DNA from: a virus
IMG/VR virus record: IMGVR_UViG_3300045988_180339
Location: 1-18,696 of that record
Strand: one strand, 5' to 3'
Length of the DNA stretch: 18,696 bases
Shown here: in pieces, positions 6,440 to 18,696 of the stretch
How positions within the stretch are numbered: position 1 is the stretch's first letter
Layout: each line of letters starts with the position of its first letter
Program-made: the position numbers and the translations under genes
Notes under the pieces: generated by a model
What the model was told of the DNA's origin: nothing
The model's database searches: none
What the model saw: only the letters and a program-made list of their open reading frames with translations

Positions 6440-6810
6440 GCTCGCCGTTCCGCGCCACGCGGACACGAGGTGCTCATCGCCGCACTTGCAAACGGAAACC
6501 TCTATGTCGCACTCCGCTCCCCGCCTGTCCGAATCGGCCTTCACAGCGACTGCCCAGGCGCGGTTCCCGAAACCGCCCTCTAAAATTACGCGCTCCATGT
6601 TCTGCTCCTTTCATTTCCACCGAAATTATGCCACAATGTAAGCGCTGGAGAAGTCCCGTTTCTCTGCCAGTAGCGTAATTCGGGACAGCGGGCCTTGCGG
6701 CCACCGAGGCGCGGTTTCAGGCTGGGGACTTTGAGCAGACTGCGGGTGACTTCCGAGCAACAAAAGACCTGAAACGGGAAGTCTCGCGACTGAACCGTTT
6801 CAGGTCGATT
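6440..6810 (+). ncRNA. Non-coding region with stable hairpins; candidate packaging RNA (pRNA) and/or late-operon leader
   Basis: No ORF with an SD on either strand across about 370 nt in an otherwise gene-dense genome. Contains the 12-bp hairpin 6766-6806 and the repeated GTTTCAGG motif. A gp16-like ATPase and gp10-like connector are present, and phi29-like motors use a pRNA. Assignment is inferential. Confidence 0.3.
6766..6806 (+). promoter_or_regulatory. Perfect 12-bp hairpin GACCTGAAACGG / CCGTTTCAGGTC (17-nt loop) immediately upstream of the scaffold gene SD
   Basis: Seen directly. GTTTCAGG also occurs at 6714-6721 and can pair with the same CCTGAAAC arm (6769-6776), giving mutually exclusive structures. 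Confidence 0.5.
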
Positions 6811-6827
6811 TAGTTTAGGAGGCAAGA

Positions 6828-7133
6828 ATGGATTTCGACGAGCTGCTCAAGCAGTACGACAACATCCACGACACCGAGGGCATCCCCGGTTTCCGCGAGA
6901 CGCTGGTGTCGTACGGCCAGAGCGTCGGGCAGATCTCCGAGGGAGCCAACGCCCGCATCAGCGAGCTAGAGACCGCTCTGGCTGCAGCGGAGGAGAAGGC
7001 TACGAACCTCGCTGCAAGGAACTACGAGCTTATCATCGCGGCGACCGCCCAGGAAGCGGCGGAGGAGAAGCCGACCGATGAGATCACCGACGAGGACAGG
7101 GACGTGAAGACCCTGTTCGGAAAGAAGGAATAA
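6828..7133 (+). CDS. Head scaffolding protein (101 aa, acidic, coiled-coil-like)
   Basis: SD TTTAGGAGG. Ala/Glu-rich heptad-like segment ISELETALAAAEEKATNLAARNYELIIAATAQEAAEEK. Directly precedes the major capsid gene, as phi29 gp7 does. Confidence 0.6.
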   Translation: MDFDELLKQYDNIHDTEGIPGFRETLVSYGQSVGQISEGANARISELETALAAAEEKATNLAARNYELIIAATAQEAAEEKPTDEITDEDRDVKTLFGKKE

Positions 7134-8597
7134 ATGGGAGATGCAATCCTGCAGGCGGACAACGCCGCAATCATCAACAAGGTGCGCGCCAACGCGAGCC
7201 TCGAATACCAGTCGCGAATCCCCGCGGTAACGCAAGCCAACCTGTCCAAGACGTTCGCCACGCTGCAGGCTTACCCGCTGATGTGGAACGAGTTCATGGA
7301 CGTGCTCATCAACCGAATCGGACTCACGCTGTTCAACCAGAACAGCTTCACGAACCGTCTGAAGCCGCTCAAGTCGGGCGCTATGAACTACGGCGGCATG
7401 ATTCAGGAGATCGGCGCGAACCTGCTGCACGCGGAGTCCTACGACCCGAACGACACCAACGTGTTCGGCGGCGAGAAGGCGGACGTGGAGGTGAACTACC
7501 ACCAGATCAACCGACGCGACAAGTACAAGATGCGCGTGAACAACGACCTTTTGGAGGAGGCGTTCCTGAACGACGGGCAGCTTGCGGAGTTCGTGAACAA
7601 CCTGCTGTCCCTCCCGCAGAAGTCCGACGAGTGGGACGAGTACATCATCATGCGCGGCCTGCTCAAGAAGTACCAGGAAGCGGACGGCTTCTTCAACTAC
7701 CAGGTGCCTGACTTGGGAGCGTCCGCAGACCCCGAGGCCGACGGCAAGAAGATCACCGAGCTGCTCCGAGAGGTGTACCTCGACACCAAGGGCTTCTATA
7801 GAACCAAGTACAACGCGCTCGGCATGCAGGTAGCTCCCGAGGAGCTCATCCTTCTCGGCACGCCGAAGTTCTTCGCGAAGCTCGACGTGAACGTGCTCGC
7901 TGCAGCGTACCACATGGACAAGGCAGACTTCCTGGCAGACCGCACCATCGTGGTCGATGATTTCGAGATGCCCGGCACCCAGTGCATGTTCCTCGACAGC
8001 AACTGGTACAAGTGCATGGACACCAAGCTCAAGACCACGAACATGTACAACCCGTCTGCAGACGAGTGGACTTACTACCTCCACCACTGGGGCGTGTACT
8101 CCGCATCCCGTCAGAGCACGTGCATCCGCTTCTCGACCGATGCCGCGACGGCCGTCATCGGCCAGGCCCGCACGGTAACGGGTATCGCAGCGGCGCTCGA
8201 CCCGACGGTGGCAGGCAACAAAGTGCTCGAACCTGGCGCGGACGTCGCGTTCAAGGTGGCGGTATCCTACTCGGACGGAAGCTCCGACTCCAACGCCTAC
8301 GCTATCATCACGACCGAGGACGCGACCGCGCCGACCAAGCTCCCCGCGAACGTCGTGTACCCCGACACGGGAACCTACGTAGACCGCATGGGCGTGCTGC
8401 ACGTGTCCGACACGGCAGCGTTCAACAACCTGACCGTCACCTGGGTTTCAACCATCGACGCGACCAAGCTCGCGTCCGTGAAGCTCACGGCGGCCGATTC
8501 GGCGGTTGCGGCATCCGACGATTCCGCATCGACGCCGACCAAGGCCAAGGCCGTTTCCCGCGCGAAGGCCGTAAAGGCGGCAACCGAGGAAAAGTAA
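7134..8597 (+). CDS. Major capsid protein (487 aa) with a C-terminal Ig-like (BIG2-type) domain
   Basis: Largest structural ORF, following the scaffold gene. The C-terminal ~150 aa are Thr/Ala/Val-rich beta-sandwich-like (TVTGIAAALDPTVAGNKVLEPGADVAFKVAVSYSDGSSD...), as in phi29 gp8. Ends with a Lys/Ala-rich tail. Confidence 0.75.
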   Translation: MGDAILQADNAAIINKVRANASLEYQSRIPAVTQANLSKTFATLQAYPLMWNEFMDVLINRIGLTLFNQNSFTNRLKPLKSGAMNYGGMIQEIGANLLHAESYDPNDTNVFGGEKADVEVNYHQINRRDKYKMRVNNDLLEEAFLNDGQLAEFVNNLLSLPQKSDEWDEYIIMRGLLKKYQEADGFFNYQVPDLGASADPEADGKKITELLREVYLDTKGFYRTKYNALGMQVAPEELILLGTPKFFAKLDVNVLAAAYHMDKADFLADRTIVVDDFEMPGTQCMFLDSNWYKCMDTKLKTTNMYNPSADEWTYYLHHWGVYSASRQSTCIRFSTDAATAVIGQARTVTGIAAALDPTVAGNKVLEPGADVAFKVAVSYSDGSSDSNAYAIITTEDATAPTKLPANVVYPDTGTYVDRMGVLHVSDTAAFNNLTVTWVSTIDATKLASVKLTAADSAVAASDDSASTPTKAKAVSRAKAVKAATEEK

Positions 8598-10772
8598 ATG
8601 GGAAACCTGCTGAAAAGACTTCGCGGCGAGAACCCCGAGAACCTCAACGAGGACTCGGGGTTCACCCCTTATTCGTGGCCCACCGACTCGAAGGCCACGC
8701 TTTGCCGCGTGCCCTGGGACGCCGAATACCGCAACGTGGTGGACTGGCAAGACCAGCAGCACAAGGACAGCTACTTCTCATCGCTTGAATCAGATTCGTG
8801 CGAGCTCGGGTCGATGACGTACCTAAAGCCGAACGACCCGATCTTCGTGGACGTGCCGTTCTCGAAGGCGTACAGCTACAACTACATCGTCGTGGAGAAC
8901 CCCAAGCTCCCCGTTCCGGGAGAGGTGGAGCCGCGCAAGCTCTACTACTTCGTGACGGCGGTAGGCTACGTCGCGCCGAACACCACCTCGATAGCGGTGC
9001 AGCTCGACGTGTGGACGACTTACGGCGACACCGCCGAGTTCGGGCGCTGCTTCGTGGAGCGAGGGCACGTGGGAATAGCGGCCGAGATGAGCAAGCCGAC
9101 GCCTACGGCGGATAAACTGGGACCAGCTCGTTCGAAGGTGTACCGACGCTACCTCACGGCTGCCGAGGGTTTGGACATCGGCAACGAGTACCTGATCGGG
9201 GACGTTGACGCTTTCAGCATCGCCGACTACGACCATGGGTGGGCGGTGGTCATCATGAGCACCACCGACCTTTTGGCCGATTGGGGCACTCTCAGCAACC
9301 CGTCCATGACAACTGCGGACGGCCAGGTTACGGACGGCCTGATAGGCGGGTGCAACGTCTACTCGCTGTCGACCGCCGATTTCAGGCAGTTCATGAAGAA
9401 CATCCGCAACTATCCCTGGGTTGCGAAGGGAATCATCAGCGTAACGGCGTTTCCGAAGGCGCTTCTAACGGACGGGCCCTCTGTGGACAAGGACGGCGTC
9501 ACCCTGTACTTCCTGGGGACGACGCCCGACAAGGGCTTCTACCGTGAAATCGACGATGTTTGGGAGCGATTATCGAAGTCGATTCCAGATCGTTACCGCA
9601 ACCTGCACAAGCTGCTGTGCTATCCGTACTCGGTCATCGAGCTGAACACCTACAACGGAAGCCCTGTGCTTCTGAAACCCGAGCTGCTCAACACCGACAC
9701 GCTCAGGCTCAGGAACATCTCGTGCGCCGTGCCGGGGCACATCAAAATCGGGTTCTACCCCTGGGCATACGACAGCGAGCGCCTCGTGCTGAACGAGTAC
9801 GGCCTGCCCGTGGTGTCGGCTACGATGGACGACCCGACGGTGAACCTGCCTGTTTCGGGTAACTCGCTCGACTCGTGCGTTTGGATGCAGGAAATGCCGA
9901 AGTTCTCGCTTGTGAACGACAACTACCTCAACTACCTCGCTTCCACCACGCATACCCGCGAATGGCAGTACAACTCGGCCGGATGGCAGCAGGCGAAGTC
10001 GAACGCGAGCGCCCACCTGTCGTATGACCAGGCGCAGCAGCAGATAGCGACGAACCGCGCCAACTGGAACGCATCGACGCGGGGCTTGCTGGGCAACGTG
10101 GCGGGCAACATCGGGAACCTTGCGATGAGCGGTGCGGACGCCCTCGGCATAGGCGGCGCGGTAAGCGGTGCGGCCGACTTCGCGAACGGCGTGCTGGGAA
10201 CGGTATCGGGCGCTATCGGTGCTACGGGCTGGGACAACATGCAGGGCATCGTGAACAACCTCACGGGCCTTACCGAGCTGAACAACAACCAGGCCCTGCA
10301 GGGCAACATCGCCTCGCAGAACCTCGACCTGGCCCAGTGGGCGGCGCAGGGAGACTACGAGAACGCGATCGCCAAGATAAACGCGACCGTGCAGGACGCG
10401 GCGCTCACAGCTCCATCGGTCATCGGCCAAGCAGGCGGCAGCGGGTTCTCGATGTCGAACGGCCTCTTCGTCGTGCAGACTAGGTTCAAGACCATCGACC
10501 AGAACCACATGCACATCATCGGCGAGTATTGGCTAAGGTACGGCTACGCGGTGCGCGAGTTCATGGTGCCGCCAGCCGACCTCTGTTGCATGGAGCACTT
10601 CACCTACTGGAAGATGCTGGAGACGAGCGTGGAGTGCGCGCTCGCCGACGAGACGTCTAAGGAGACCATCAGGGGAATATTCGAGAAGGGCGTCACCGTG
10701 TGGAGGAGCGCCGACGAGATAACCACGTGGGACTTATCGGACAACGACCCGATTTTGGGCGATTACTACTAA
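8598..10772 (+). CDS. Tail knob / distal tube protein (phi29 gp9-like, 724 aa) with a Gly-rich hydrophobic loop
   Basis: Position between the capsid and connector genes, as for phi29 gene 9. Gly-rich segment GLLGNVAGNIGNLAMSGADALGIGGAVSGAADFANGVLGTVSGAIGATG (nt about 10080-10230), like the membrane-active loop of gp9. C-terminal GVTVWRSADEITTW resembles the gp9 end. Confidence 0.6.
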   Translation: MGNLLKRLRGENPENLNEDSGFTPYSWPTDSKATLCRVPWDAEYRNVVDWQDQQHKDSYFSSLESDSCELGSMTYLKPNDPIFVDVPFSKAYSYNYIVVENPKLPVPGEVEPRKLYYFVTAVGYVAPNTTSIAVQLDVWTTYGDTAEFGRCFVERGHVGIAAEMSKPTPTADKLGPARSKVYRRYLTAAEGLDIGNEYLIGDVDAFSIADYDHGWAVVIMSTTDLLADWGTLSNPSMTTADGQVTDGLIGGCNVYSLSTADFRQFMKNIRNYPWVAKGIISVTAFPKALLTDGPSVDKDGVTLYFLGTTPDKGFYREIDDVWERLSKSIPDRYRNLHKLLCYPYSVIELNTYNGSPVLLKPELLNTDTLRLRNISCAVPGHIKIGFYPWAYDSERLVLNEYGLPVVSATMDDPTVNLPVSGNSLDSCVWMQEMPKFSLVNDNYLNYLASTTHTREWQYNSAGWQQAKSNASAHLSYDQAQQQIATNRANWNASTRGLLGNVAGNIGNLAMSGADALGIGGAVSGAADFANGVLGTVSGAIGATGWDNMQGIVNNLTGLTELNNNQALQGNIASQNLDLAQWAAQGDYENAIAKINATVQDAALTAPSVIGQAGGSGFSMSNGLFVVQTRFKTIDQNHMHIIGEYWLRYGYAVREFMVPPADLCCMEHFTYWKMLETSVECALADETSKETIRGIFEKGVTVWRSADEITTWDLSDNDPILGDYY

Positions 10773-10784
10773 GGAGGTGCAGCT

Positions 10785-11822
10785 TTGAGCAAGGCAATCA
10801 AGCAGCGCGAGCTTGTTGACTGGCCTGACGAGATGGACCAGATGTACGGGCGCAACTGGGTGCGAAAGATGTTCACCGCAGCCGAGCGGTTCGACCTGAT
10901 GCAGTACCGCCACTGGCTCTGGTACCTGGAATCGCTGGCAATCGGCGCTTTCAAGTGGAGCAACGTACCCGCTGGAATCGACGCGAGGGCGATCGAGTAC
11001 ATCCTGCTGCACTTCGGGCAGGGAGCTTTGTTCATGGACGAGGGCGGCATGCTGTTCGCGGCCGCAGCTCCCGCCGACAACATCAACATGTACTGGAACC
11101 CGAACAAGATCATGCTGACCGCTCCGAACGGCCAGACGTGGGAGCGCCATTGCGAGAGCTGGGTTATGGCAGACGGCGATGGCGGCCACCGCGTCATGCA
11201 CCGCGACGCCGTCATGTGCTTCGACAACATGCGTCGCTTCCCGCTCTACGCGGACATCAGGAACTACGCAAGGCGTCTCGCGAGAATCGACGCCATCCTC
11301 GACGTGAACCACGGCGCGCAGAGAACGCCGTACATCGTAACCGGCAGCGAGGAGGGGAAGAACTCCCGCCGCGACGTCATCAGAAAGCTGGAGAGCAACG
11401 ACCAGTACATACAGATGAACAGCGAGCTATCGGGCAACTTGGGGATGGTGGACGTGCTGCAGACCGTCGCGCCCTACGTGGCCGACAAGCTGCTGTCGGA
11501 CAAGCAGAAGATTCTCAACGAGGCCGTTACCATGCTTGGAATCGACAACACCAACAACGAGAAGCGCGAGCGCATGATAGACGCCGAGGCGACGTCCAAC
11601 AACGAGCAGATAATGGTCATGCGCAGGAACCGCCTTGAGGAGCGAAGGAAGTTCTGCATCAAGGCGAACACCATCTTCCAAGACCTCGACATGTGGGTCG
11701 AATGGGGCGTTCCGCACGAGCGCACGGACATCGACGCGAAGCCGCTCGGCGGCAAGCAGTCGGAAGACGGCGAATCCAAGCCGAAGGGCGGCAGCGCCCC
11801 GACGGGAGGCGATGAGGAATGA
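10785..11822 (+). CDS. Head-tail connector / portal protein (phi29 gp10-like, 345 aa), TTG start
   Basis: SD AAGGAGGTG 6 nt before TTG 10785. YLESLAIGAFKWSNVPAGIDARAIEYILLHFGQGALFMDE aligns with phi29 gp10 [39 protein letters not shown]. Acidic Gly-rich C-tail. Confidence 0.85.
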   Translation: MSKAIKQRELVDWPDEMDQMYGRNWVRKMFTAAERFDLMQYRHWLWYLESLAIGAFKWSNVPAGIDARAIEYILLHFGQGALFMDEGGMLFAAAAPADNINMYWNPNKIMLTAPNGQTWERHCESWVMADGDGGHRVMHRDAVMCFDNMRRFPLYADIRNYARRLARIDAILDVNHGAQRTPYIVTGSEEGKNSRRDVIRKLESNDQYIQMNSELSGNLGMVDVLQTVAPYVADKLLSDKQKILNEAVTMLGIDNTNNEKRERMIDAEATSNNEQIMVMRRNRLEERRKFCIKANTIFQDLDMWVEWGVPHERTDIDAKPLGGKQSEDGESKPKGGSAPTGGDEE

Positions 11823-12382
11823 TATACACCGACGAGGCACCGACCCTGTACGACGTCGTGAACCTCTACGGAGAGGACTACGCGGGAGCTATGGCCGACT
11901 ACCCTATCTGGGACGAGTCGATGAGGGCATGGCTCAACAACCGCATCTACGAGAAGTTCGCGTTCAGGGAGATAGGCGTTGACACGCCCGCGAAGTTCCT
12001 GTTCTTCCTGCGCCGCCGCATGCACGACATGATGCCGACCGTGAACCCCATGTTCGCGGCGTTGGAGGACGTTGACATCCTGGAAGGATACGAGACGTTC
12101 GACGACGCGTCGGCAGATTCGAAATCGAGCGCCGAGCAGGCCAACCTCTACTCGGCGACGCCGCAGACGCAGCTCTCGAACGCGAAGAACTACGCGACGA
12201 ACCTCACGCAGACGGAGGGCGAGAACATGGGCGAGAGCACGCAGAAGGCGCGCCACTACGGCCGCAGCGGCACCGTCGGCGACATGGTGGGCAACTGGGC
12301 GATGAGCGTGAACAACGCGCTCTACATCGTCTACAATGGCATCGAGCCTTTGTTCAACCAGATATGGAAGGAGGACTTCTAA
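11819..12382 (+). CDS. Structural protein, 187 aa (candidate lower collar / adaptor by position)
   Basis: ATGA overlap with the connector gene. SD GGGAGG upstream. No motif recognised. Confidence 0.5.
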   Translation: MIYTDEAPTLYDVVNLYGEDYAGAMADYPIWDESMRAWLNNRIYEKFAFREIGVDTPAKFLFFLRRRMHDMMPTVNPMFAALEDVDILEGYETFDDASADSKSSAEQANLYSATPQTQLSNAKNYATNLTQTEGENMGESTQKARHYGRSGTVGDMVGNWAMSVNNALYIVYNGIEPLFNQIWKEDF

Positions 12383-12988
12383 ATGGCACTTTGGCAAGAC
12401 AAGTGCAACCGCCTCGACTTCGCGTACAGAGGGTACCAGTACCCCGTGCCGCCGTCATGGAAGTACGCGGTGCGCCTCGAAGACCAGATCCAATGGCTGT
12501 TGCAGGCTATCCTCAAAGCGGCGGACGAGGCTGTGTCGGCAGGCGACCTGATGGACTTCAGAAACGAGATGTACGATTTCATCGACCGCGTGGCGGCGGC
12601 GCTGGAAGAGGAAATCGATGAGTATTCGCAGCGGCGCGCATGGTGCTGCTCGCCAGTGGACGGAGCATTGCGCTCGATGGGCGTGGTCGCCCGCCAAGTC
12701 TACGATGCGGCGCGTCCGCTGGCGATGAGGTACAGGGAGTTCGACGAAATCGGAATGACGTACGACGCGCTCAAGGCAGAGGGCAGGAAGTACAACGACG
12801 TTGACTTCCATAGCAACCTGTACTGGGGCAACGGCAACCTGTTGGCGAACACCACGCCCGCCGAGGCTATTTCAGACCCCGTCGCGGGGGAGCCTGGAGC
12901 GTGGAACCCGACAGGCGGCGGTTACTCGAAGGGAACCACCTACTCGCAGATAAACGAGAACGGGTTCATGTACCGGAAGGAGGCGTGA
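12383..12988 (+). CDS. Structural protein, 201 aa (tail/collar-associated, unknown)
   Basis: Strong SD GGAAGGAGG before ATG 12383. Lies between the connector and fibre genes. Confidence 0.6.
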   Translation: MALWQDKCNRLDFAYRGYQYPVPPSWKYAVRLEDQIQWLLQAILKAADEAVSAGDLMDFRNEMYDFIDRVAAALEEEIDEYSQRRAWCCSPVDGALRSMGVVARQVYDAARPLAMRYREFDEIGMTYDALKAEGRKYNDVDFHSNLYWGNGNLLANTTPAEAISDPVAGEPGAWNPTGGGYSKGTTYSQINENGFMYRKEA

Positions 12989-12989
12989 C

Positions 12990-13967
12990 ATGGCACTTCC
13001 TACTTTCGAGTACGACAGGCGAATCGACATCGTGGACGCGCTGAACGAGCTTTCCACCGCAGCCGATGCGGCCATCGAAGCGGGAGGCGGCTCTAGCAGC
13101 TACGTCCTCCCCGTTGCCGCTGACGCCGTGCTGGGCGGCGTAAAAGGCCAGCGCGTGGAAGAGAAGGACGGCAACGGCAGGATCGTGCAGGTAACGCCCG
13201 ACGGAACCGCCTTCATCGACGCAGCCGACGCGCTGAACCCAGGCGTCGTGCGATCCAAGGAAGGCAATTCGTTCGCCGACACCGATGCAAACATCGCCGT
13301 CAACGCGCACGGCTACATGAAGTGCGACGCTCCCAAGGCCTACGTCGATGCGCAGGTTGCGGGCGTGGAGGCGCACCTGGAAGCGTTCGAGGCGGAGGCC
13401 GTCACGCAGGCCGAGGGGGCGAACGCCATCCAAGCGACTATCGCGCCTACGGAGAGCGCCGGCTCGAAGCTGACAGTCTCGCTCAAGTACGGCACAGGGC
13501 TTGCCGTGCAGAACGGAACCCTCGTGGCAACGGGAGGCGGAGAGGTTACGCAAAAAGTCGTTTCCTTAGCCGCTAATGAAACATTGCCGTTAGGCAATTT
13601 AACGATGCAGGTTGAGCGCAATGGAATTTACTTCGTCACTGTAAGCCAACAGCAAAGATTCGACGCACTGCTGATAAACGCAGTGTTTGCCGTATCATCA
13701 GAATTAGCTGGCCCCGGGTTTAACTTTACATGCCCTAACAGTAACAAAGCTACAAAATGGGTTGTCAACAGCATAGAAGCACCTGATTTAATTAGAACGC
13801 AATTCAAGGTGCCAGTTTTAGGGGGATACGTTCAAAGAGACGTAGAATCGTATACTAATACATACGCCGTCTGCAATGCTTCCGAAACATCGTTATTTAT
13901 CTCTAGTTTCTCAAGCAGCAAAAAATCCTTTTATATGTATCCTCTCACTGTGGTCAGATATCATTAA
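12990..13967 (+). CDS. Receptor-binding tail fibre / appendage protein 1 (325 aa) with a low-GC C-terminal head domain
   Basis: SD GGAAGGAGG. N-terminus (LPTFEYDRRIDIVDALNELSTAADAAIEAGGGSSSYVLPVAADAVLGGVKG) is paralogous to the N-terminus of the next gene and carries a phage-fibre-type repeat (GGVKG...VTPDG). Nucleotides about 13555-13967 drop to ~41% GC. Confidence 0.65.
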   Translation: MALPTFEYDRRIDIVDALNELSTAADAAIEAGGGSSSYVLPVAADAVLGGVKGQRVEEKDGNGRIVQVTPDGTAFIDAADALNPGVVRSKEGNSFADTDANIAVNAHGYMKCDAPKAYVDAQVAGVEAHLEAFEAEAVTQAEGANAIQATIAPTESAGSKLTVSLKYGTGLAVQNGTLVATGGGEVTQKVVSLAANETLPLGNLTMQVERNGIYFVTVSQQQRFDALLINAVFAVSSELAGPGFNFTCPNSNKATKWVVNSIEAPDLIRTQFKVPVLGGYVQRDVESYTNTYAVCNASETSLFISSFSSSKKSFYMYPLTVVRYH

Positions 13968-13977
13968 GGAGTAAACC

Positions 13978-14850
13978 ATGCCAACCAACAACTACAGCCT
14001 TCCCACCATCTCGGGCGAAGAGGTAATCGACATCGTAGGGGACATGAACGCGCTCGCGAACGCGACCGACGCCGCCTTGAAGAAGGTGGAGCAGGGCGGG
14101 CTCGACCAGTACGTTCTCCCCACGGCGACGCGCACCGTAAAGGGCGGCGTCATCGTCGGAGACGGGCTTTCCATCACCCCCGGCGGCGTCCTGTCCGCCG
14201 TCTCGCAGGGCGGGGGCGGCACGGCAACCATGCCCGTAGCAACGTCCGTCACCCTCGGCGGCGTCAAAATCGGCGCTGGAATCACCGTAACGCCCGACGG
14301 AACCATCTCGGTGCCCGCGTCATCGAGCATCGAGGACGGCGCGGTTACGTCCTCGAAGCTTGCGAGCGGAGCGGTGACGGCCGACAAGCTGAGCGCCAGC
14401 GCGGTTACCACGGTCAAAATCGACAACGGCGCGGTGACCGAGGGCAAGATCGCGAACGGGGCCGTCACGTCCTCCAAGCTCTCTAGCGACGTATCGGAGG
14501 ACATCAGCAGCGCCAAGTCGCAGGCGGCGAGCGCTTACCAAGGATGGAGCGGGTCGCCGACACGCGCAGGCTCCTTCTCCTCAGGGCAGGGTACTATCGA
14601 ATGCTGGGGCAAAGTCGTTGTAGTCCATTGCGAGCAAATCACCGTTGCAAGCGCCTCTAAAACTCTTGTCGGAACTGTTTCAGGCGCATATAGGCCTATA
14701 AGCGAAACTACGGGCGTCGTTGGCGCTATCGGCGGTTCTGGAACTGTCAGCGCCTTCATTAAAGTGGAGACGGGCGGCAACATCTACATCAACCCCGGCT
14801 CTGCAGCGGGGCTTAACTGGACTGGCACGCTCGTGTACCTCATCAGCTAA
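13978..14850 (+). CDS. Receptor-binding tail fibre / appendage protein 2 (290 aa) with fibre repeats and a 5x tandem ~11-aa repeat
   Basis: SD AAGGAG. N-terminus YSLPTISGEEVIDIVGDMNALANATDAALKKVEQGGLDQYVLPTATRTVKGGV parallels protein 1. Repeats GGVIVGDGLSITPGGVLS and GGVKIGAGITVTPDGTISV. Then (G)AVTxxK(L/I)xxx five times. The C-terminal ~110 aa are unrelated to protein 1 and lower in GC. Confidence 0.65.
   Translation: MPTNNYSLPTISGEEVIDIVGDMNALANATDAALKKVEQGGLDQYVLPTATRTVKGGVIVGDGLSITPGGVLSAVSQGGGGTATMPVATSVTLGGVKIGAGITVTPDGTISVPASSSIEDGAVTSSKLASGAVTADKLSASAVTTVKIDNGAVTEGKIANGAVTSSKLSSDVSEDISSAKSQAASAYQGWSGSPTRAGSFSSGQGTIECWGKVVVVHCEQITVASASKTLVGTVSGAYRPISETTGVVGAIGGSGTVSAFIKVETGGNIYINPGSAAGLNWTGTLVYLIS
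14335..14490 (+). repeat. Five tandem 30-33-bp coding repeats (GAVTSSKLAS / GAVTADKLSAS / AVTTVKIDNG / AVTEGKIANG / AVTSSKLSSD)
   Basis: Seen directly in the nucleotide sequence (gcggttacg.../gcggtgacg.../gcggttacc.../gcggtgacc.../gccgtcacg...). The period is consistent with a fibrous shaft. Confidence 0.8.
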
Positions 14851-14853
14851 GCC

Positions 14854-16155
14854 ATGCCTACGCGGGACAACACGATCATGTACGCCATGTACGTGATCGG
14901 CAAGGTCGAGTCCGACTGGGATTGGGCGGCCGTCTACCGAGCCGACCCCATAACCATCGGTATGATGCAGGAGTACGGGCAGAACGCGAGCGACCTGCTC
15001 AAGCTATGCCGCGACGGCGATGCAGTGGGGTGGGCGTCCTTCGCGGCGTCCGCCCCCGACCTCGTGGCCGACGTGGACGCGCACGGTGACAGCTGGGACT
15101 GGTGGACTTCGCGCTACATCACCGATTCGGAGGCTTCCGCGTGGCAGGCCATGGCCGCGCGTCCCGAGAACCACAAGATCCAGCAGGACAAGTGGAAGGA
15201 CGAGGCGGCGCGATACATCGATACGCTGACTGGTTGGGGTTGGAGCGAGGAGCGGCCGCATACGCTCGTCTACGCCATGTGCATATACCACCAGTCGCCG
15301 CAGGCGTGCGGGCAGGTGACGAGGAGCTGCAGCGGCTCAGCGTCACTGGACAACCTTCACGCCACGACCCTTAACTCGTGGATTGGGAAGTACGCCAACC
15401 GCTACAACACCGCCTACGACATGCTCAAGGATTGGGACGGGGATAGCGCGCCGCCCGACTTCGGGCAGGTGGTGGACAGCCCGAGCGGCGGCAACTCGGG
15501 CACCGTATCGCAGCCTTCGAACGACATCGACCGCGTTGAGATGCGCAACGGGCAGATCGTCGTATGGGGGCTGTCCTCGTACCCGAACGGGCTTATCTGC
15601 ACCTACGCGGCTCCCAACATCTGGATTCCTTGGAGCCGCAAGGGGGGCACCGACAACCCAGGCGGCACGACGGGCGGGGGAACGGCGCAGGGAGCAGAGG
15701 CGGCGGAGAAGGCCGCCGAGCTTATGCGAAGCTGGGAGAAACGGTTCTCATACTCGCAGGGAGCGGGCAGGCTGTCCCCCGAGAGCAGCGGCTACACCGA
15801 CTGCAGCGGCGTCATCTGGTACGCCTACCAGCAGGCGGCGTCCCTGGACGTCGGCACCTGGACGGGGGAGCAGGCGGAGAAGGGGCGGCAGATAGCGTGG
15901 GGGAACAACGGCATGCCATACAATGCGGAGACGCTCTACGGCATGCGCACGGGCGACCTCGTGCTAATCGACTGGGACACCGTCACGTCCCCTGGGAACA
16001 CGAGCTACGACCATGTAGAGATGTACATGGGAGACAACAAGCTGATGGGGCATGGCGGAGGTGCGGCACATCCAGAGGGGCCGTACTGGAAGGACGATAT
16101 GCTGGCCTACATGCGCAACGTCGCGACTTGGGAAATCAGGCGTTACGCCGAGTAA
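14854..16155 (+). CDS. Virion-associated peptidoglycan hydrolase (433 aa): N-terminal lytic-transglycosylase-like domain plus C-terminal NlpC/P60 endopeptidase
   Basis: VESDW...(14 aa)...IGMMQEYG fits SLT motifs I (ES) and II (GLMQ). The C-terminus has YTDCSGVIWYAY (catalytic Cys), GDLVLIDW and HVEMYMG (His), as in NlpC/P60. Occupies the position of phi29 gp13, a tail lysin. Confidence 0.7.
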   Translation: MPTRDNTIMYAMYVIGKVESDWDWAAVYRADPITIGMMQEYGQNASDLLKLCRDGDAVGWASFAASAPDLVADVDAHGDSWDWWTSRYITDSEASAWQAMAARPENHKIQQDKWKDEAARYIDTLTGWGWSEERPHTLVYAMCIYHQSPQACGQVTRSCSGSASLDNLHATTLNSWIGKYANRYNTAYDMLKDWDGDSAPPDFGQVVDSPSGGNSGTVSQPSNDIDRVEMRNGQIVVWGLSSYPNGLICTYAAPNIWIPWSRKGGTDNPGGTTGGGTAQGAEAAEKAAELMRSWEKRFSYSQGAGRLSPESSGYTDCSGVIWYAYQQAASLDVGTWTGEQAEKGRQIAWGNNGMPYNAETLYGMRTGDLVLIDWDTVTSPGNTSYDHVEMYMGDNKLMGHGGGAAHPEGPYWKDDMLAYMRNVATWEIRRYAE

Positions 16156-16186
16156 AAAGCGTCCCTCGGAAATGAAGGTTATCAAC

Positions 16187-17260
16187 ATGCAGAATGTTCT
16201 CGAAAAAGATAATATATCACCCCGACGGTACTACCCCGTAGCGAAAACATGCAGCTACGGCGCTCCTCTGACGCTCATCATCTCGGCTCGAAGCTACGGA
16301 AAGACCTTCGGTTTCGTACTCAGAGGCCTAAAACGGTGGGCGAAAACGGGCGCTCAGTTCGCTTGGGTGCGGCGCTACGACGACGAGACCGCGAAGACGG
16401 CCCCGACGCTGCTCGATGATGTCCTTTCTCACGGTTATATGGACGGATATGAGTTCCGCTACGTCGGCCGCCGATGGGAAGGCCGAAAGAGCGGCGACGA
16501 CTCGAGACCTTGGGCTACGGTCTGCCACTGCCTGACGTTGAGCATGGGACAGAGCTATAAAGGCGTTGCGTTCCCGCTAGTCGATACGGTAATCTTCGAC
16601 GAGTTCATCCGAGAGGTGAAAACGCCGCCCGGATACCTTCGGGAAGAGGTGGGCGTTTTCCTCAACCTGCTTAAATCGGTGTTCCGCGACCGCCCGCGCG
16701 TGCACGCCTTCGCGCTCGCGAACGCCTGCGACCTTACCGCTCCGCTGCTCGCGTTCGCTGGAGTCCGCAGCGAATCGCAGATAGCGACGCCTTCGGGTTA
16801 TAGCTGGCACAACAATAAAAGCGTCCTCGTGCACTTCGCGCACGATGCGGAGTTTATGGCCCAAGAGGCTGAAACGGTAGTCGGTAGGCTCGTGCAGGGC
16901 ACGCCGTACGCGGGCGTCATGCTCGGCAACCAGTTCGCGAACGGAGGCGACAACCTTATCGGGTCAAAGCCCGCGCGAGCTCGCTACCGATACGGGTTCG
17001 TTTTCGAATCGGAGCGCTTCGGCGTTTGGAGCGACGACGTTACTGGCGTGTTATATGTCAACGGTAAGATTCCAAGCGGTGCGGGTATGCTGTTCACCCT
17101 GCAAGCGGGTGATATGTCCGTGGATGTCGTCATGGTAGAGCGAGCGGCCCCGTTCGCGAAGGCTATCATGAGGCTGTTCGGATTCGGCCGCGTACTGTTC
17201 GACTCGGCGGCAACACGTGAGCGCTTTATAAAGATGCTAGGCTTGTGCGGCCTGCGATAG
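16187..17260 (+). CDS. DNA packaging ATPase (phi29 gp16-like); alternative start ATG 16172
   Basis: PLTLIISARSYGKTFGFVLRG...AQFAWVRRYDDE matches gp16 RILNFVIGARGIGKSYAMKV...EQFIYVRRYKPE (Walker A). TVIFDEFIRE is identical to the gp16 Walker B TIVFDEFIRE. Confidence 0.9.
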   Translation: MQNVLEKDNISPRRYYPVAKTCSYGAPLTLIISARSYGKTFGFVLRGLKRWAKTGAQFAWVRRYDDETAKTAPTLLDDVLSHGYMDGYEFRYVGRRWEGRKSGDDSRPWATVCHCLTLSMGQSYKGVAFPLVDTVIFDEFIREVKTPPGYLREEVGVFLNLLKSVFRDRPRVHAFALANACDLTAPLLAFAGVRSESQIATPSGYSWHNNKSVLVHFAHDAEFMAQEAETVVGRLVQGTPYAGVMLGNQFANGGDNLIGSKPARARYRYGFVFESERFGVWSDDVTGVLYVNGKIPSGAGMLFTLQAGDMSVDVVMVERAAPFAKAIMRLFGFGRVLFDSAATRERFIKMLGLCGLR

Positions 17261-17799: not shown

Positions 17800-17800
17800 T

Positions 17801-17935
17801 TTAACTCCTCTCGTACAAAGCGAAGACAGCGATGAACTGTGCAATTCCCACGATCCCCCAAGGTTCTGGAGCGAAGAACATCGCGAAGGCTGCCAGAATC
17901 ATCGAGGCAGCAAACGCGACATCTGCGGCGGTCAT
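17801..17935 (-). CDS. Small hydrophobic peptide, 44 aa (MTAADVAFAASMILAAFAMFFAPEPWGIVGIAQFIAVFALYERS), two predicted TM helices
   Basis: ATGA overlap with the stop of the upstream gene 17932-18186. Its last codons (GAG AGG AGT TAA) form the SD of the next gene. Not in the ORF track because it is short. Confidence 0.45.
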   Translation of the reverse strand: MTAADVAFAASMILAAFAMFFAPEPWGIVGIAQFIAVFALYERS

Positions 17936-18186
17936 GCGTAGGCCTCGCAGTCGTAAGCTTCAAGGTCGAACGAATTGGCAAACTTGGCAGCATCGCGGTA
18001 GAAGTCCACCGCCTTATCAACCTCGTAGCCGAATTCAAAATCTGCAAACATATATGGTTTCTCGACAATGACCCAGTATGTCCACTTGTCGAAGACGTAT
18101 TTAATCCTCTGCAGTTCGACGCGATACGTAACAGTTGAATATTCAAAACCGTGACGCTCAGTCAACGCGATAGTTTCTTTCTCCAT
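17932..18186 (-). CDS. Right-end early protein, 84 aa, aromatic/acidic-rich
   Basis: SD GGGAGG 7 nt before ATG at 18186-18184. The longer track ORF to 18252 lacks an SD and overlaps the upstream gene. Confidence 0.6.
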   Translation of the reverse strand: MEKETIALTERHGFEYSTVTYRVELQRIKYVFDKWTYWVIVEKPYMFADFEFGYEVDKAVDFYRDAAKFANSFDLEAYDCEAYA

Positions 18187-18187
18187 T

Positions 18188-18442
18188 TTAGTCCTCCCAT
18201 TTGATCGCGTTTGCCTGGTCAAGGATAAAAAAGCAATCCATGAAGCTTTCAAGCTGATAAACGCACTCGCGAGGAGAACCGCACGCTAAAACCTTCAAGG
18301 GAACCCACTGCCCACGCTCGAAGCGCTCAAGGTATACGTTATGGCCGATTCCTCCGCGATCATGAACGCGAACATTAAACTGCTTCATATAGTCATTAAC
18401 GTAGTCGATTTTTCCTTCCAAAGTTTTGACGGTGTAACGCAT
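18188..18442 (-). CDS. First right-end early protein, 84 aa, start codon is the last triplet of the ITR
   Basis: SD GGAAGGAG (inside the ITR) with a 6-nt spacer before ATG at 18442-18440, then unique sequence (MRYTVKTLEGKIDYVNDYMKQF...). The track ORF start at 18511 lies in the ITR and is rejected. Confidence 0.65.
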   Translation of the reverse strand: MRYTVKTLEGKIDYVNDYMKQFNVRVHDRGGIGHNVYLERFERGQWVPLKVLACGSPRECVYQLESFMDCFFILDQANAIKWED

Positions 18443-18696
18443 AATCCTGCTCCTTCCAAACAGCGCACCCAAGCCCATCGCCGGGTGCCTTGCCTTGCTG
18501 ACAGTGACCACTATATCAGGTGTGTAAAGTGATGTCTAGTATTTTGGGCGAAAAAGTTGGATATTATTTTGTGGTGCAGTTTGTTGTGGTTAGTTTGTGT
18601 TGTGCTTATGTGGGTTAAAGAAAGTGGGTTGTGTTTTTGTGGGGTCATACTGTGGGTATTATTATTTGGGGGAAATAAGTTGGATATTGTTTACTA
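18440..18696. repeat. Right inverted terminal repeat (ITR), 257 bp
   Basis: Reverse complement of 1-257. The window therefore spans a whole linear genome of phi29/Cp-1 type (Cp-1 is known to have a long ITR of more than 200 bp). Confidence 0.95.
18510..18538 (-). promoter_or_regulatory. Mirror copy of the ITR promoter driving the leftward early operon from the right end
   Basis: Same sequence on the minus strand (-35 at 18533-18538, -10 at 18510-18515). The SD and ATG at 18442-18440 also lie in the ITR. Confidence 0.55.

Follow-up and report, generated by a model that had tools for sequence, protein, structure and literature searches.

The window analysed here is the whole stretch of 18,696 nucleotides, a complete 18.7-kb genome of an uncultured phi29-like podovirus from human gut metagenomes, with a perfect ITR of 257 bp. 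Searches against Pfam and PHROG identified a phi29-like MCP, tail knob, connector, lower collar, gp16 ATPase, protein-primed polymerase and SSB. The MCP is only 33% identical to those of its nearest isolates, megablast with the full window found nothing in a set of 50,697 phage genomes, and a scan of IMG/VR with the conserved gene g201 recovered only 2 relatives. The hosts of the family are probably high-GC Actinobacteria; one MAG match, obtained for a long-tailed phage that carries a head domain described below (head_a), gives a weak host assignment to Ellagibacter. Two putative fibre genes lie between the lower collar gene and a gp13-like NlpC/P60 lysin gene (Pfam, PHROG), the slot that the appendage gene occupies in phi29. 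The features of this region are listed below.

11819-12382, lower collar (phrog_3225/5472)
12383-12988, + strand, g201, conserved left flank for cassette exchange (96-98% amino-acid identity among relatives)
12990-13967, + strand, protein 1, putative fibre/receptor-binding protein (RBP) of 325 aa, comprising A1, stalk, Gly linker and head_a (ORF with Shine-Dalgarno sequence)
12990-13154, + strand, anchor A1, aa 1-55 of protein 1 (BLASTP, hhalign; conserved in 60 homologue clusters)
13155-13532, + strand, stalk, aa 56-181, with a helical AYVDAQVAGVEAHLEAFEAEAVTQAEG segment (GC3 0.8-0.9)
13533-13541, + strand, Gly-Gly-Gly linker, recombination junction and onset of the GC fall (limits of the L002 and L013 matches)
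13542-13964, + strand, head_a, aa 185-325, predicted all-beta sandwich (GC 0.416, GC3 0.42)
13978-14850, + strand, protein 2, putative fibre/RBP of 290 aa, comprising A2, fibre repeats, neck helix and head_b (ORF with Shine-Dalgarno sequence)
13978-14154, + strand, anchor A2, aa 1-59 of protein 2 (BLASTP, hhalign)
14155-14508, + strand, fibre repeats, P.AT..LGGVK and GAVT..K[LI] units (PHROG tail-fibre matches)
14509-14847, + strand, neck helix and head_b, aa 178-290, predicted lactococcal-phage-type RBP head
14608-14742, + strand, local GC3 dip within head_b, aa 211-255 (GC3 0.42, CAI 0.32)
14854-16155, + strand, gp13-like NlpC/P60 tail lysin, conserved right flank (Pfam PF00877, phrog_1015)

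Both flanks are strongly conserved among relatives: g201, which matched no family in Pfam or PHROG, has a dN/dS of about 0.07, and the P60 lysin retains 96-98% amino-acid identity. Each fibre gene is preceded by a strong Shine-Dalgarno sequence, GGAGG at 12979-12983 for protein 1 and AAGGAG at 13966-13971 for protein 2. BLASTP aligned aa 2-113 of protein 1 with aa 7-149 of protein 2 (E 3e-9, 30% identity), and hhalign, run on profiles of both anchor families, gave 95% probability and an E value of 2.8e-8 over 50 columns; the anchors are judged paralogous on these alignments. The C-terminal parts of the two proteins showed no mutual similarity in BLASTP. The A2 anchor is also found in the single RBP of low-GC relatives (group C), whose proteins begin MPTPNFNLPLINGASPISIVNDMNALA.

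Full-length homologues of protein 2 form about 20 clusters, at 45-96% identity. Its aa 110-190 match tail-fibre PHROGs (phrog_892, E 1e-11), and tblastn of the protein against the 50,697 phage genomes recovered tail fibres of unrelated phages, with matches over aa 11-175 through generic fibre repeats only. In the predicted structure, head_b is a compact C-terminal beta-barrel following a helical neck, a fold of the lactococcal type, and PDB 3da0 (a TP901-1/p2 chimera) is among its fold matches; as modelled, head_b carries a true receptor-binding-protein head fold. The modules of protein 1 were delimited from homologues. Family searches with this protein returned nothing but one weak PHROG of unknown function, tblastn found no counterpart in the 50,697 phage genomes, and neither protein matched Pfam at E 0.01. 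head_a is confidently predicted as a beta-sandwich, while its matches to knob-like folds are weaker. Its fold matches are moderate, the best being the accessory domain of a glycosidase; against viral models, Foldseek yielded E values of at least 2e-3.

The sequence-only reading had described the locus as two ORFs for receptor-binding proteins that share an N-terminal anchor, continue into fibre repeats and end in unrelated heads. The ORFs, the anchor and the unrelatedness of the heads all agree with the present results. Fibre repeats were recovered for protein 2 but not for protein 1, with its single weak PHROG. The identification as RBPs is favoured by the appendage gene position and by the fold of head_b, whereas the matches of head_a are moderate.

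Base composition changes abruptly within the gene of protein 1, where GC3 falls exactly at the linker. The N-terminal part of the gene has a GC of 0.650 and a GC3 of 0.79, and GC3 around head_a is 0.79-0.90 against 0.42 inside, with all three codon positions low (GC1/2/3 of 0.43/0.40/0.42 over 13542-13964). head_a is the lowest 423-nt window of the coding genome, the others having a mean GC of 0.603 (sd 0.027, minimum 0.527), and its CAI is 0.22 compared with 0.62-0.79 elsewhere (structural genes as reference). Because GC3 falls as well, amino-acid composition alone is insufficient to account for the dip and was rejected as its sole cause. head_a has a dN/dS of 0.3-0.7, compared with a backbone value of about 0.05. 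In protein 2, the GC dip is a modest anomaly: the region 14580-14760 has a GC of 0.53, and about 3.4% of the remaining coding windows of 181 nt have values this low. The GC3 dip of head_b recurs in the related loci L003, L013 and L025, and it does not depend on amino-acid variability, whose association with GC3 in this protein is weak (rho 0.41, p 0.08). The GC profile is hence far from flat, as had been anticipated, and codon adaptation drops in head_a and in the dip of head_b, although the claim of low GC in both applies in full to head_a only.

An architecture table of about 40 related loci and contigs revealed that the modules are shuffled among them, with breakpoints at the Gly-Gly-Gly linker. 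In the relatives, every slot-1 head follows such a linker (A[TL]GGG). head_a was seen on seven different N-terminal contexts, and head_b on both fibre/anchor types, a distribution that marks head_b as a family-wide head type and not, as had been supposed, foreign DNA. The modular RBP exchange that had been proposed is thus directly visible, both in the relatives and in a clean DNA breakpoint at 13532-13541. A diversity-generating retroelement was also sought, and no RT was found among the large ORFs of the 18.7-kb genome, all of which were assigned or scanned. In the mechanism that we propose, the two proteins would be tail fibres (RBPs) of three parts each. An anchor of about 50 aa presumably attaches the fibre to the collar or tail; a fibrous stalk follows, and a beta-sandwich head at the C-terminus would bind the host surface. 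Both proteins would sit on the virion as trimers and bind a receptor. The heads would act as interchangeable cassettes, recombining at short conserved linker motifs (A[TL]GGG in slot 1), and whole heads would pass from one fibre to another, from phage to related phage, and also to an unrelated long-tailed phage that presumably shares the host.

The breakpoint was located with two related loci. In blastn, a 219-aa gene of L002 matches the anchor and stalk of protein 1 at 93.8% nucleotide identity and ends at 13540, while a separate 222-aa gene of L013 matches head_a from 13532 onwards; both breakpoints are borne out by alignment, and the junction is a 9-nt stretch common to both parental gene types. 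These matches indicate that protein 1 arose by recombination as a fusion. Crossing over within the GGG codons (13532-13541) would have joined the anchor and stalk of the 219-aa gene directly to the head of the 222-aa gene. About 0.7 kb would have been lost in this way, encoding a 71-aa protein, two 'cap' modules of C-terminal position and the N-terminus of the head gene itself. The fibre is encoded by two or three genes in close relatives, in L002 as proteins of 219, 71 and 227 aa, and is fused in the window; phages of group A and of group B alike have the three-gene layout, which is hence ancestral. As the crossover would have removed the intervening coding sequence, the fibre here would be a single chain, compared with apparently two or three polypeptides in the relatives. 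The pieces of these split fibres would then be held together by non-covalent joints between a 'cap' and the next N-terminus. This 'segmented fibre' reading follows from the logic of the fusion only, and any in-frame deletion between syntenic genes gives the same pattern. A cap-bearing 107-aa protein of the relative L028 passes the cut-off of PF11133 (Phage_head_fibr) with 25.3 versus 24.6 bits, its cap region matching the C-terminus of the phi29 head fibre, so that the short cap-ended proteins could be complete small fibres and not segments.

Low GC is a property of all slot-1 heads, which have GC3 values of 0.31-0.47 across at least seven types unrelated by phmmer. Alleles of head_a, at dS 0.03-1.14, all remain within GC3 0.39-0.47, and their polarised singletons are balanced (41 W>S versus 41 S>W, or 16 versus 16 without an unpolarisable branch; a small sample). 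At third positions of the backbone, S>W changes number 252 and W>S changes 29, which predicts a neutral GC3 of 0.51 (CI 0.40-0.60), compared with actual values of 0.8-0.9, in an equilibrium argument that uses 5-8 sequences and parsimony polarisation. In searches of 5.8e9 and 1.84e9 proteins, head_a was carried only by high-GC phages, namely podoviruses of 58-61% GC and a long-tailed phage of 65-70% GC, where head_a is low in GC too; the clusters, at least 14 in number, all sit on N-termini of such phages. Taken as a whole, the low GC of head_a looks old and stable, not freshly imported. Divergence alone does not lower GC, since the tail knob has normal GC in its central segment (about 9300-9900), which is divergent, and head_a shows no link between variability and GC3. 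Correlating conservation with GC across the genome proved unreliable and was discarded, as most loci miss the left half and the knob segment is a counter-example. The genome ends are equally AT-rich.

Several explanations for this composition were weighed. Recent import from a lower-GC phage, with head_a and the head_b patch still unameliorated and the heads of relatives representing repeated imports from the same pool, would fit the abrupt fall of GC3 precisely at the linker, and the GC3 range of slot-1 heads equals the genome-wide GC3 of the group C sisters, which have 45-48% GC and the same genome layout and habitat, as well as the A2 anchor. Cassettes have also moved recently, as head_a is synonymously closer to L013 (dS 0.03) than is the neighbouring P60 gene (dS 0.18); however, this visible movement originates from a sister high-GC phage. 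No homologue emerged beyond the family, whether in the 50,697 phage genomes or among 1.84e9 representative proteins, where the head_a profile returned family members only, plus the weak repeat protein P0063, regarded as spurious. Patterns of head_a gave no confirmed match in GTDB genomes, HMMs of head_a and head_b matched none of the RBPs of the low-GC sister phages at E<10, and phmmer clustering left the slot-1 heads unlinked to the group C heads (about 9 types). Among the usual marks of xenology, a compositional deviation at synonymous sites is present (GC3, CAI), but all carriers have 58-70% GC, and amelioration is not in evidence, with W<->S changes balanced and GC3 flat over a dS of about 1.1 in this small sample. 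We therefore consider recent import unlikely. The earlier proposals of a lower-GC donor, and of this DNA as the most recently acquired in the genome, are not supported by these data, though an unsampled low-GC reservoir may be the source of the heads. It is highly improbable that AT-richness is itself selected, for recombination insulation, for tuning of translation or folding, or through host AT-binding silencers. Low GC3 is universal in sequence-unrelated slot-1 heads and stable across long divergence, as such selection would have it, but its level is that predicted from neutral mutation pressure, which makes extra selection unnecessary; in addition, GC3 in head_a is alike at invariant (0.37) and variable (0.45) codons, and no motif or structure was found. 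In the reading that we regard as probable, slot-1 heads would lie near the AT-biased mutational equilibrium of these phages, while the backbone would be held GC-rich. A further step, which we rate as less likely than not, is that the head slot is a long-lived cassette locus whose interior escapes the GC-raising force acting on the backbone and relaxes to this equilibrium. The force could be GC-biased gene conversion in frequent homologous recombination, or codon selection; why it would spare the heads is something we infer.

Two further alternatives concern the proteins themselves. An assembly artefact, in which reads of two co-occurring phages were joined at a shared GGG repeat, would be compatible with the 9-nt junction stretch, but is scarcely credible: the identical 325-aa protein 1 occurs on six independent contigs from different samples and assemblers (ENA, Logan), on which ground the chimera was rejected, and a second, distinct fusion of 224 aa has the same junction on two further contigs. 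It is also very unlikely that only one of the proteins is a tail RBP and the other a capsid fibre of the phi29 gp8.5 kind or a decoration with no part in adsorption. The P.AT..LGGVK repeats weakly match phi29 head-fibre sequences (E 0.06-0.09), the interval from the MCP gene to the knob gene contains no head-fibre gene, and the PF11133 hit of the cap-bearing relative points the same way. Against this, both genes occupy the appendage position with homologous anchors, the RBP-fold head_b occurs on both anchor types in relatives, and neither protein of the window reaches any Pfam threshold, including the gathering score of PF11133. Overall, we regard as probable the reading of dual modular fibres with swappable heads, a fused protein 1 and an old, stable low GC in head_a.

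The fibre pair is an ordinary kind of system. RBPs of lactococcal and Listeria siphophages (TP901-1 ORF49/BPP, p2 ORF18, bIL170, PSA gp15) likewise combine a conserved N-terminal attachment with a swappable head, at only 12-19% sequence identity. Those are siphophage proteins with a baseplate shoulder domain, whereas here a phi29-like podovirus has a fibre-repeat stalk, two paralogous fibres and, in head_a, a larger and different beta-sandwich. The phi29 gp12 appendage shares the gene position between collar and gp13-like lysin and the presumed role in adsorption. It is a beta-helix tailspike of approximately 850 aa with an autocleaved chaperone, while the present proteins, of 290-325 aa with knob heads, are one third of that size, and no match to gp12 (beta-helix, C-terminal autochaperone) was found in Pfam, PHROG or PDB sequences. 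Segmented and fused fibres comparable to the one-, two- and three-gene versions are represented by T4 gp34-37 and by the T2 gp38 adhesin versus the T4 gp37 tip; their sequences are unrelated, and the fibres here are much smaller, with joints that we infer. Dual-RBP podoviruses (the SP6/K1-5 adaptor and Klebsiella 'anchor-branch' systems; recent account in PMC13579863) also have side-by-side RBPs with conserved attachment and exchangeable specificity domains. In the anchor-branch arrangement the second RBP docks on a branching domain of the first, whereas each protein here has its own homologous anchor, and no T4gp10-like branching domain was detected in either with Pfam or PHROG. The same general phenomenon, ongoing domain-level mosaicism concentrated in RBPs, was described by Smug et al. 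2023 (PMC10684548), to which the present case adds exact nucleotide breakpoints and a head class that stays AT-rich in GC-rich phages.

The fibre genes probably determine host range in an uncultured and abundant family of small phages of the human gut. Their exact linker breakpoints, together with the naturally fused and split versions, provide a blueprint for RBP swaps in a minimal 18-kb chassis, and the existence of one-, two- and three-gene fibres would mean that fibre joints can switch freely between covalent and non-covalent form. The results also call for caution, as tail-fibre tips with low GC are routinely taken for recent horizontal imports; here it is common to every slot-1 head and apparently at equilibrium. 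If the heads do escape the GC-raising force of the backbone, a GC trough at an RBP head would signify recombinational isolation of a hypervariable cassette and not foreign origin, and the heads would serve as built-in neutral reporters of phage mutation bias.

With its 18,696 bp, the window covers a linear phage genome from end to end, since its termini are perfect inverted terminal repeats of 257 bp (1-257 and 18440-18696), far longer than the 6 bp of phi29; imperfect 33-nt repeats are located inside them. Annotation with Pfam and PHROG revealed a phi29-like gene set, including an SSB, a protein-primed type-B polymerase, a holin and a GH25 lysin, together with genes for the major capsid protein, tail knob, connector, lower collar, NlpC/P60 tail lysin and gp16 packaging ATPase. 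The mechanically called gp16 ORF (16052-17260) shares its first 100 nt or so with the lysin gene; on identical contigs its start lies about 120 nt later, at window position 16172 (362 aa). The whole genome has a GC of 0.58, and the GC3 of the structural genes is 0.81-0.90. No nucleotide match was found among 50,697 deposited phage genomes, and the capsid protein is about 33% identical to those of podophages of Arthrobacter, Curtobacterium and Bifidobacterium. The contigs identical or related to the window originate from human gut metagenomes, Hadza samples included.

Two fibre genes lie downstream of the lower collar and upstream of the gp13-like lysin, which is the position of the appendage gene in phi29:

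12990-13967, protein 1, an ORF of 325 aa with a strong ribosome-binding site upstream
13978-14850, protein 2, an ORF of 290 aa with a strong ribosome-binding site upstream

Their N-termini are homologous (BLASTP, E 3e-9), and a profile-profile alignment of the two anchor families gave 95% probability (E 2.8e-8, 50 columns). The C-terminal parts share no similarity, so the shared anchor and unrelated heads proposed in the sequence-only reading are borne out. Protein 2 contains generic tail-fibre repeats (phrog_892, E 1e-11), with fibre matches also in unrelated phages; the model of its C-terminal 113 residues has a pLDDT of 92, and by its predicted fold it is a putative receptor-binding protein. 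The head of protein 1 (head_a) was predicted as a beta-sandwich larger than the protein 2 head, head_b (pLDDT 84, pTM 0.81), and Foldseek returned only weak fibre and collagen-like matches among viral models. Protein 1 is also a predicted receptor-binding protein, since its anchor is homologous, its gene lies in the appendage position and its fold is compatible. The dN/dS of head_a is 0.3-0.7, compared with about 0.05 in the collar, the lysin and g201, the conserved gene preceding the fibres, as would fit a host-contact surface under relaxed or diversifying selection. Eight repeats of P0063, a 1044-aa repeat protein of the representative library, match positions 73-105 of the head_a profile (…LISKTFTVPTIAGK…, overall E 2e-11), probably by chance or at the motif level. 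The g201 gene (12383-12988), between collar and fibres, keeps its N-terminal half in all clades and has a C-terminal half of variable length (170, 201, 205 or 282 aa); it may encode a fibre docking protein.

About 40 related loci were fetched and their fibre-region architectures tabulated. Residues 1-185 of protein 1 were found in about 60 protein clusters with differing C-termini (17-19-kb contigs), while head_a alone occurred in 14 clusters of 193-224 aa (57-96% identity) within seven different N-terminal contexts. In L009, L012 and L024, head_b is carried on a protein 1-type stalk, and protein 2 bears a third head type. The same anchors occur with different heads and the same heads on different stalks, which bears out the modular exchange suggested earlier. 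Most close relatives (groups A and B) have four genes between g201 and the lysin:

gene 1, an anchor(+stalk) protein with a terminal 32-aa "cap" (GVARADVIDIVKQALQSAVLTDNGTLQFTLPD)
gene 2, a protein of 71-111 aa that has an N-terminus of its own and a similar cap
gene 3, a protein of 199-227 aa comprising fibre repeats, the linker ALGGG and a head
gene 4, a protein 2 homologue

In other relatives the number of pieces is lower, the slot-1 fibre (the protein 1 position) being encoded by two genes or by a one-gene fusion. The multi-gene layout is present in both groups and is therefore probably ancestral, the fusions being derived. The split fibre pieces terminate in two related cap modules of 30 aa, consisting of a helix and the motif DGT[LM].FT[LV] (L002, 10560-10660 and 10790-10890; L028, 3116-3439). 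The longer cap-bearing protein (107 aa, L028) scores above the cut-off of PF11133, the Pfam model of the phi29 head fibre, and because its cap region matches the C-terminal part of this family, the cap may be simply a fibre-terminating trimerisation module. A second mosaic module of the window was observed in the tail knob gene (8598-10772; 724 aa versus 735 aa in relatives), where relatives matching at 93% on either side show hardly any or no nucleotide similarity over the middle, about 9000-9900; GC is nevertheless normal there, at 0.58-0.62.

Protein 1 itself is a recombinant. Positions 11801-13540 share 93.8% nucleotide identity with L002 through its 219-aa anchor/stalk gene, and 13532-16200 share 95.7% with L013 from the head of a separate 222-aa gene onward. 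These matches overlap only at the linker codons GGA GGC GGA, and about 0.7 kb is absent from the window compared with the multi-gene layout. An assembly artefact was ruled out, because six contigs of different sample origin encode the identical 325-aa protein; two further contigs carry another, shorter fusion joined at the same point. By Rosetta-stone logic, we infer that the anchor and head proteins of the relatives are parts of one physical fibre.

The sequence-only reading had described the head of protein 1 and part of protein 2 as low in GC, which holds strongly for protein 1 and modestly for protein 2. The head_a DNA (13542-13964) has a GC of 0.416 and a GC3 of 0.42, against a GC3 of 0.79 where the gene encodes the N-terminal portion, and is the lowest-GC 423-nt segment of the coding genome (remaining segments: mean 0.603, sd 0.027, minimum 0.527). 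Its CAI relative to the structural-gene reference is 0.22, compared with 0.62-0.79 elsewhere. The drop falls in third codon positions, starting within about 20 codons of the Gly-Gly-Gly linker, so amino-acid content does not account for it. Within protein 2, the region 14580-14760 has a GC of 0.53, equalled by 3.4% of other segments, with a GC3 of 0.42 at residues 211-255. The early-gene regions at both genome ends (1-1400 and 17800-18696) match head_a in AT-richness (GC 0.43-0.50), so head_a is not the sole low-GC DNA; ORF 229-696 has a GC3 of 0.49 and a CAI of 0.28.

The earlier explanation, a recent import from a lower-GC donor, was not supported. All slot-1 heads of groups A and B have a GC3 of 0.31-0.47, in at least seven clusters without detectable mutual similarity, while the first 60 codons of their genes have a GC3 of 0.72-0.80. 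Furthermore, head_a was seen only on modules of high-GC phages, including L017, a long-tailed phage of another kind (65-70% GC) in which it also forms a GC trough. There (L017, 1-9169), the head_a gene (6466-7134, 74% identity) lies just upstream of a holin and a CHAP lysin in an otherwise unrelated phage. A tail protein of L017 is 74% identical to that of L019, a contig binned in an Ellagibacter (Eggerthellaceae) MAG, a weak hint of the host, in line with lysis genes of Gram-positive type and with the GC content. The lower-GC sister clade, group C (L032-L046, 45-48% GC, genomes of about 15 kb), has a single receptor-binding protein with a protein 2-type anchor, and no relatives of head_a or head_b were detectable among its approximately nine head types. 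The group C receptor-binding protein (e.g., L042, 4222-5001) contains an Ala-rich coiled coil and occurs with many head types, and the g201 homologue is 282 aa.

Recency was not supported either. The head_a alleles span a dS of 0.03-1.14, several-fold above the backbone (0.17-0.38), and all retain a GC3 of 0.39-0.47. A sequence ameliorating towards a GC3 of 0.85 should show a several-fold excess of AT-to-GC changes; the polarised head_a singletons comprised 41 in each direction (16 versus 16 without an unpolarisable long branch). Backbone third-position singletons (window genes 7134-17260 versus L001, L002, L003, L005, L007, L013 and L025) comprised 252 GC-to-AT and 29 AT-to-GC changes, and the neutral equilibrium GC3 is therefore about 0.51 (CI 0.40-0.60), far under the actual 0.8-0.9. 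Given this opposite imbalance, the backbone is kept GC-rich against AT-biased mutation, and the heads are near the level set by mutation alone. The movement that is visibly recent involves a sister phage: head_a differs from that of L013 by a dS of 0.03, and the adjacent lysin gene by 0.18. Considering the class-wide low GC3, the exclusively high-GC carriers, the stable GC3, the balanced changes and the lack of a group C homologue, we regard old, stable, near-equilibrium cassettes as a better-supported reading of the heads than recent import, although an unsampled low-GC reservoir is still a conceivable source. The heads could be spared because GC-biased gene conversion is lacking within divergent cassettes, or by weakened codon selection; the middle of the tail knob gene, divergent at normal GC, is a counter-example.

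The fibres of this dual-fibre podovirus add a new, well-documented case to a known phenomenon, that of modular receptor-binding proteins whose anchors are conserved and whose heads can be swapped. Two aspects go beyond the routine: one fibre exists in natural one-, two- and three-gene versions with an exact breakpoint, and the AT-richness of the heads is class-wide and apparently at equilibrium.
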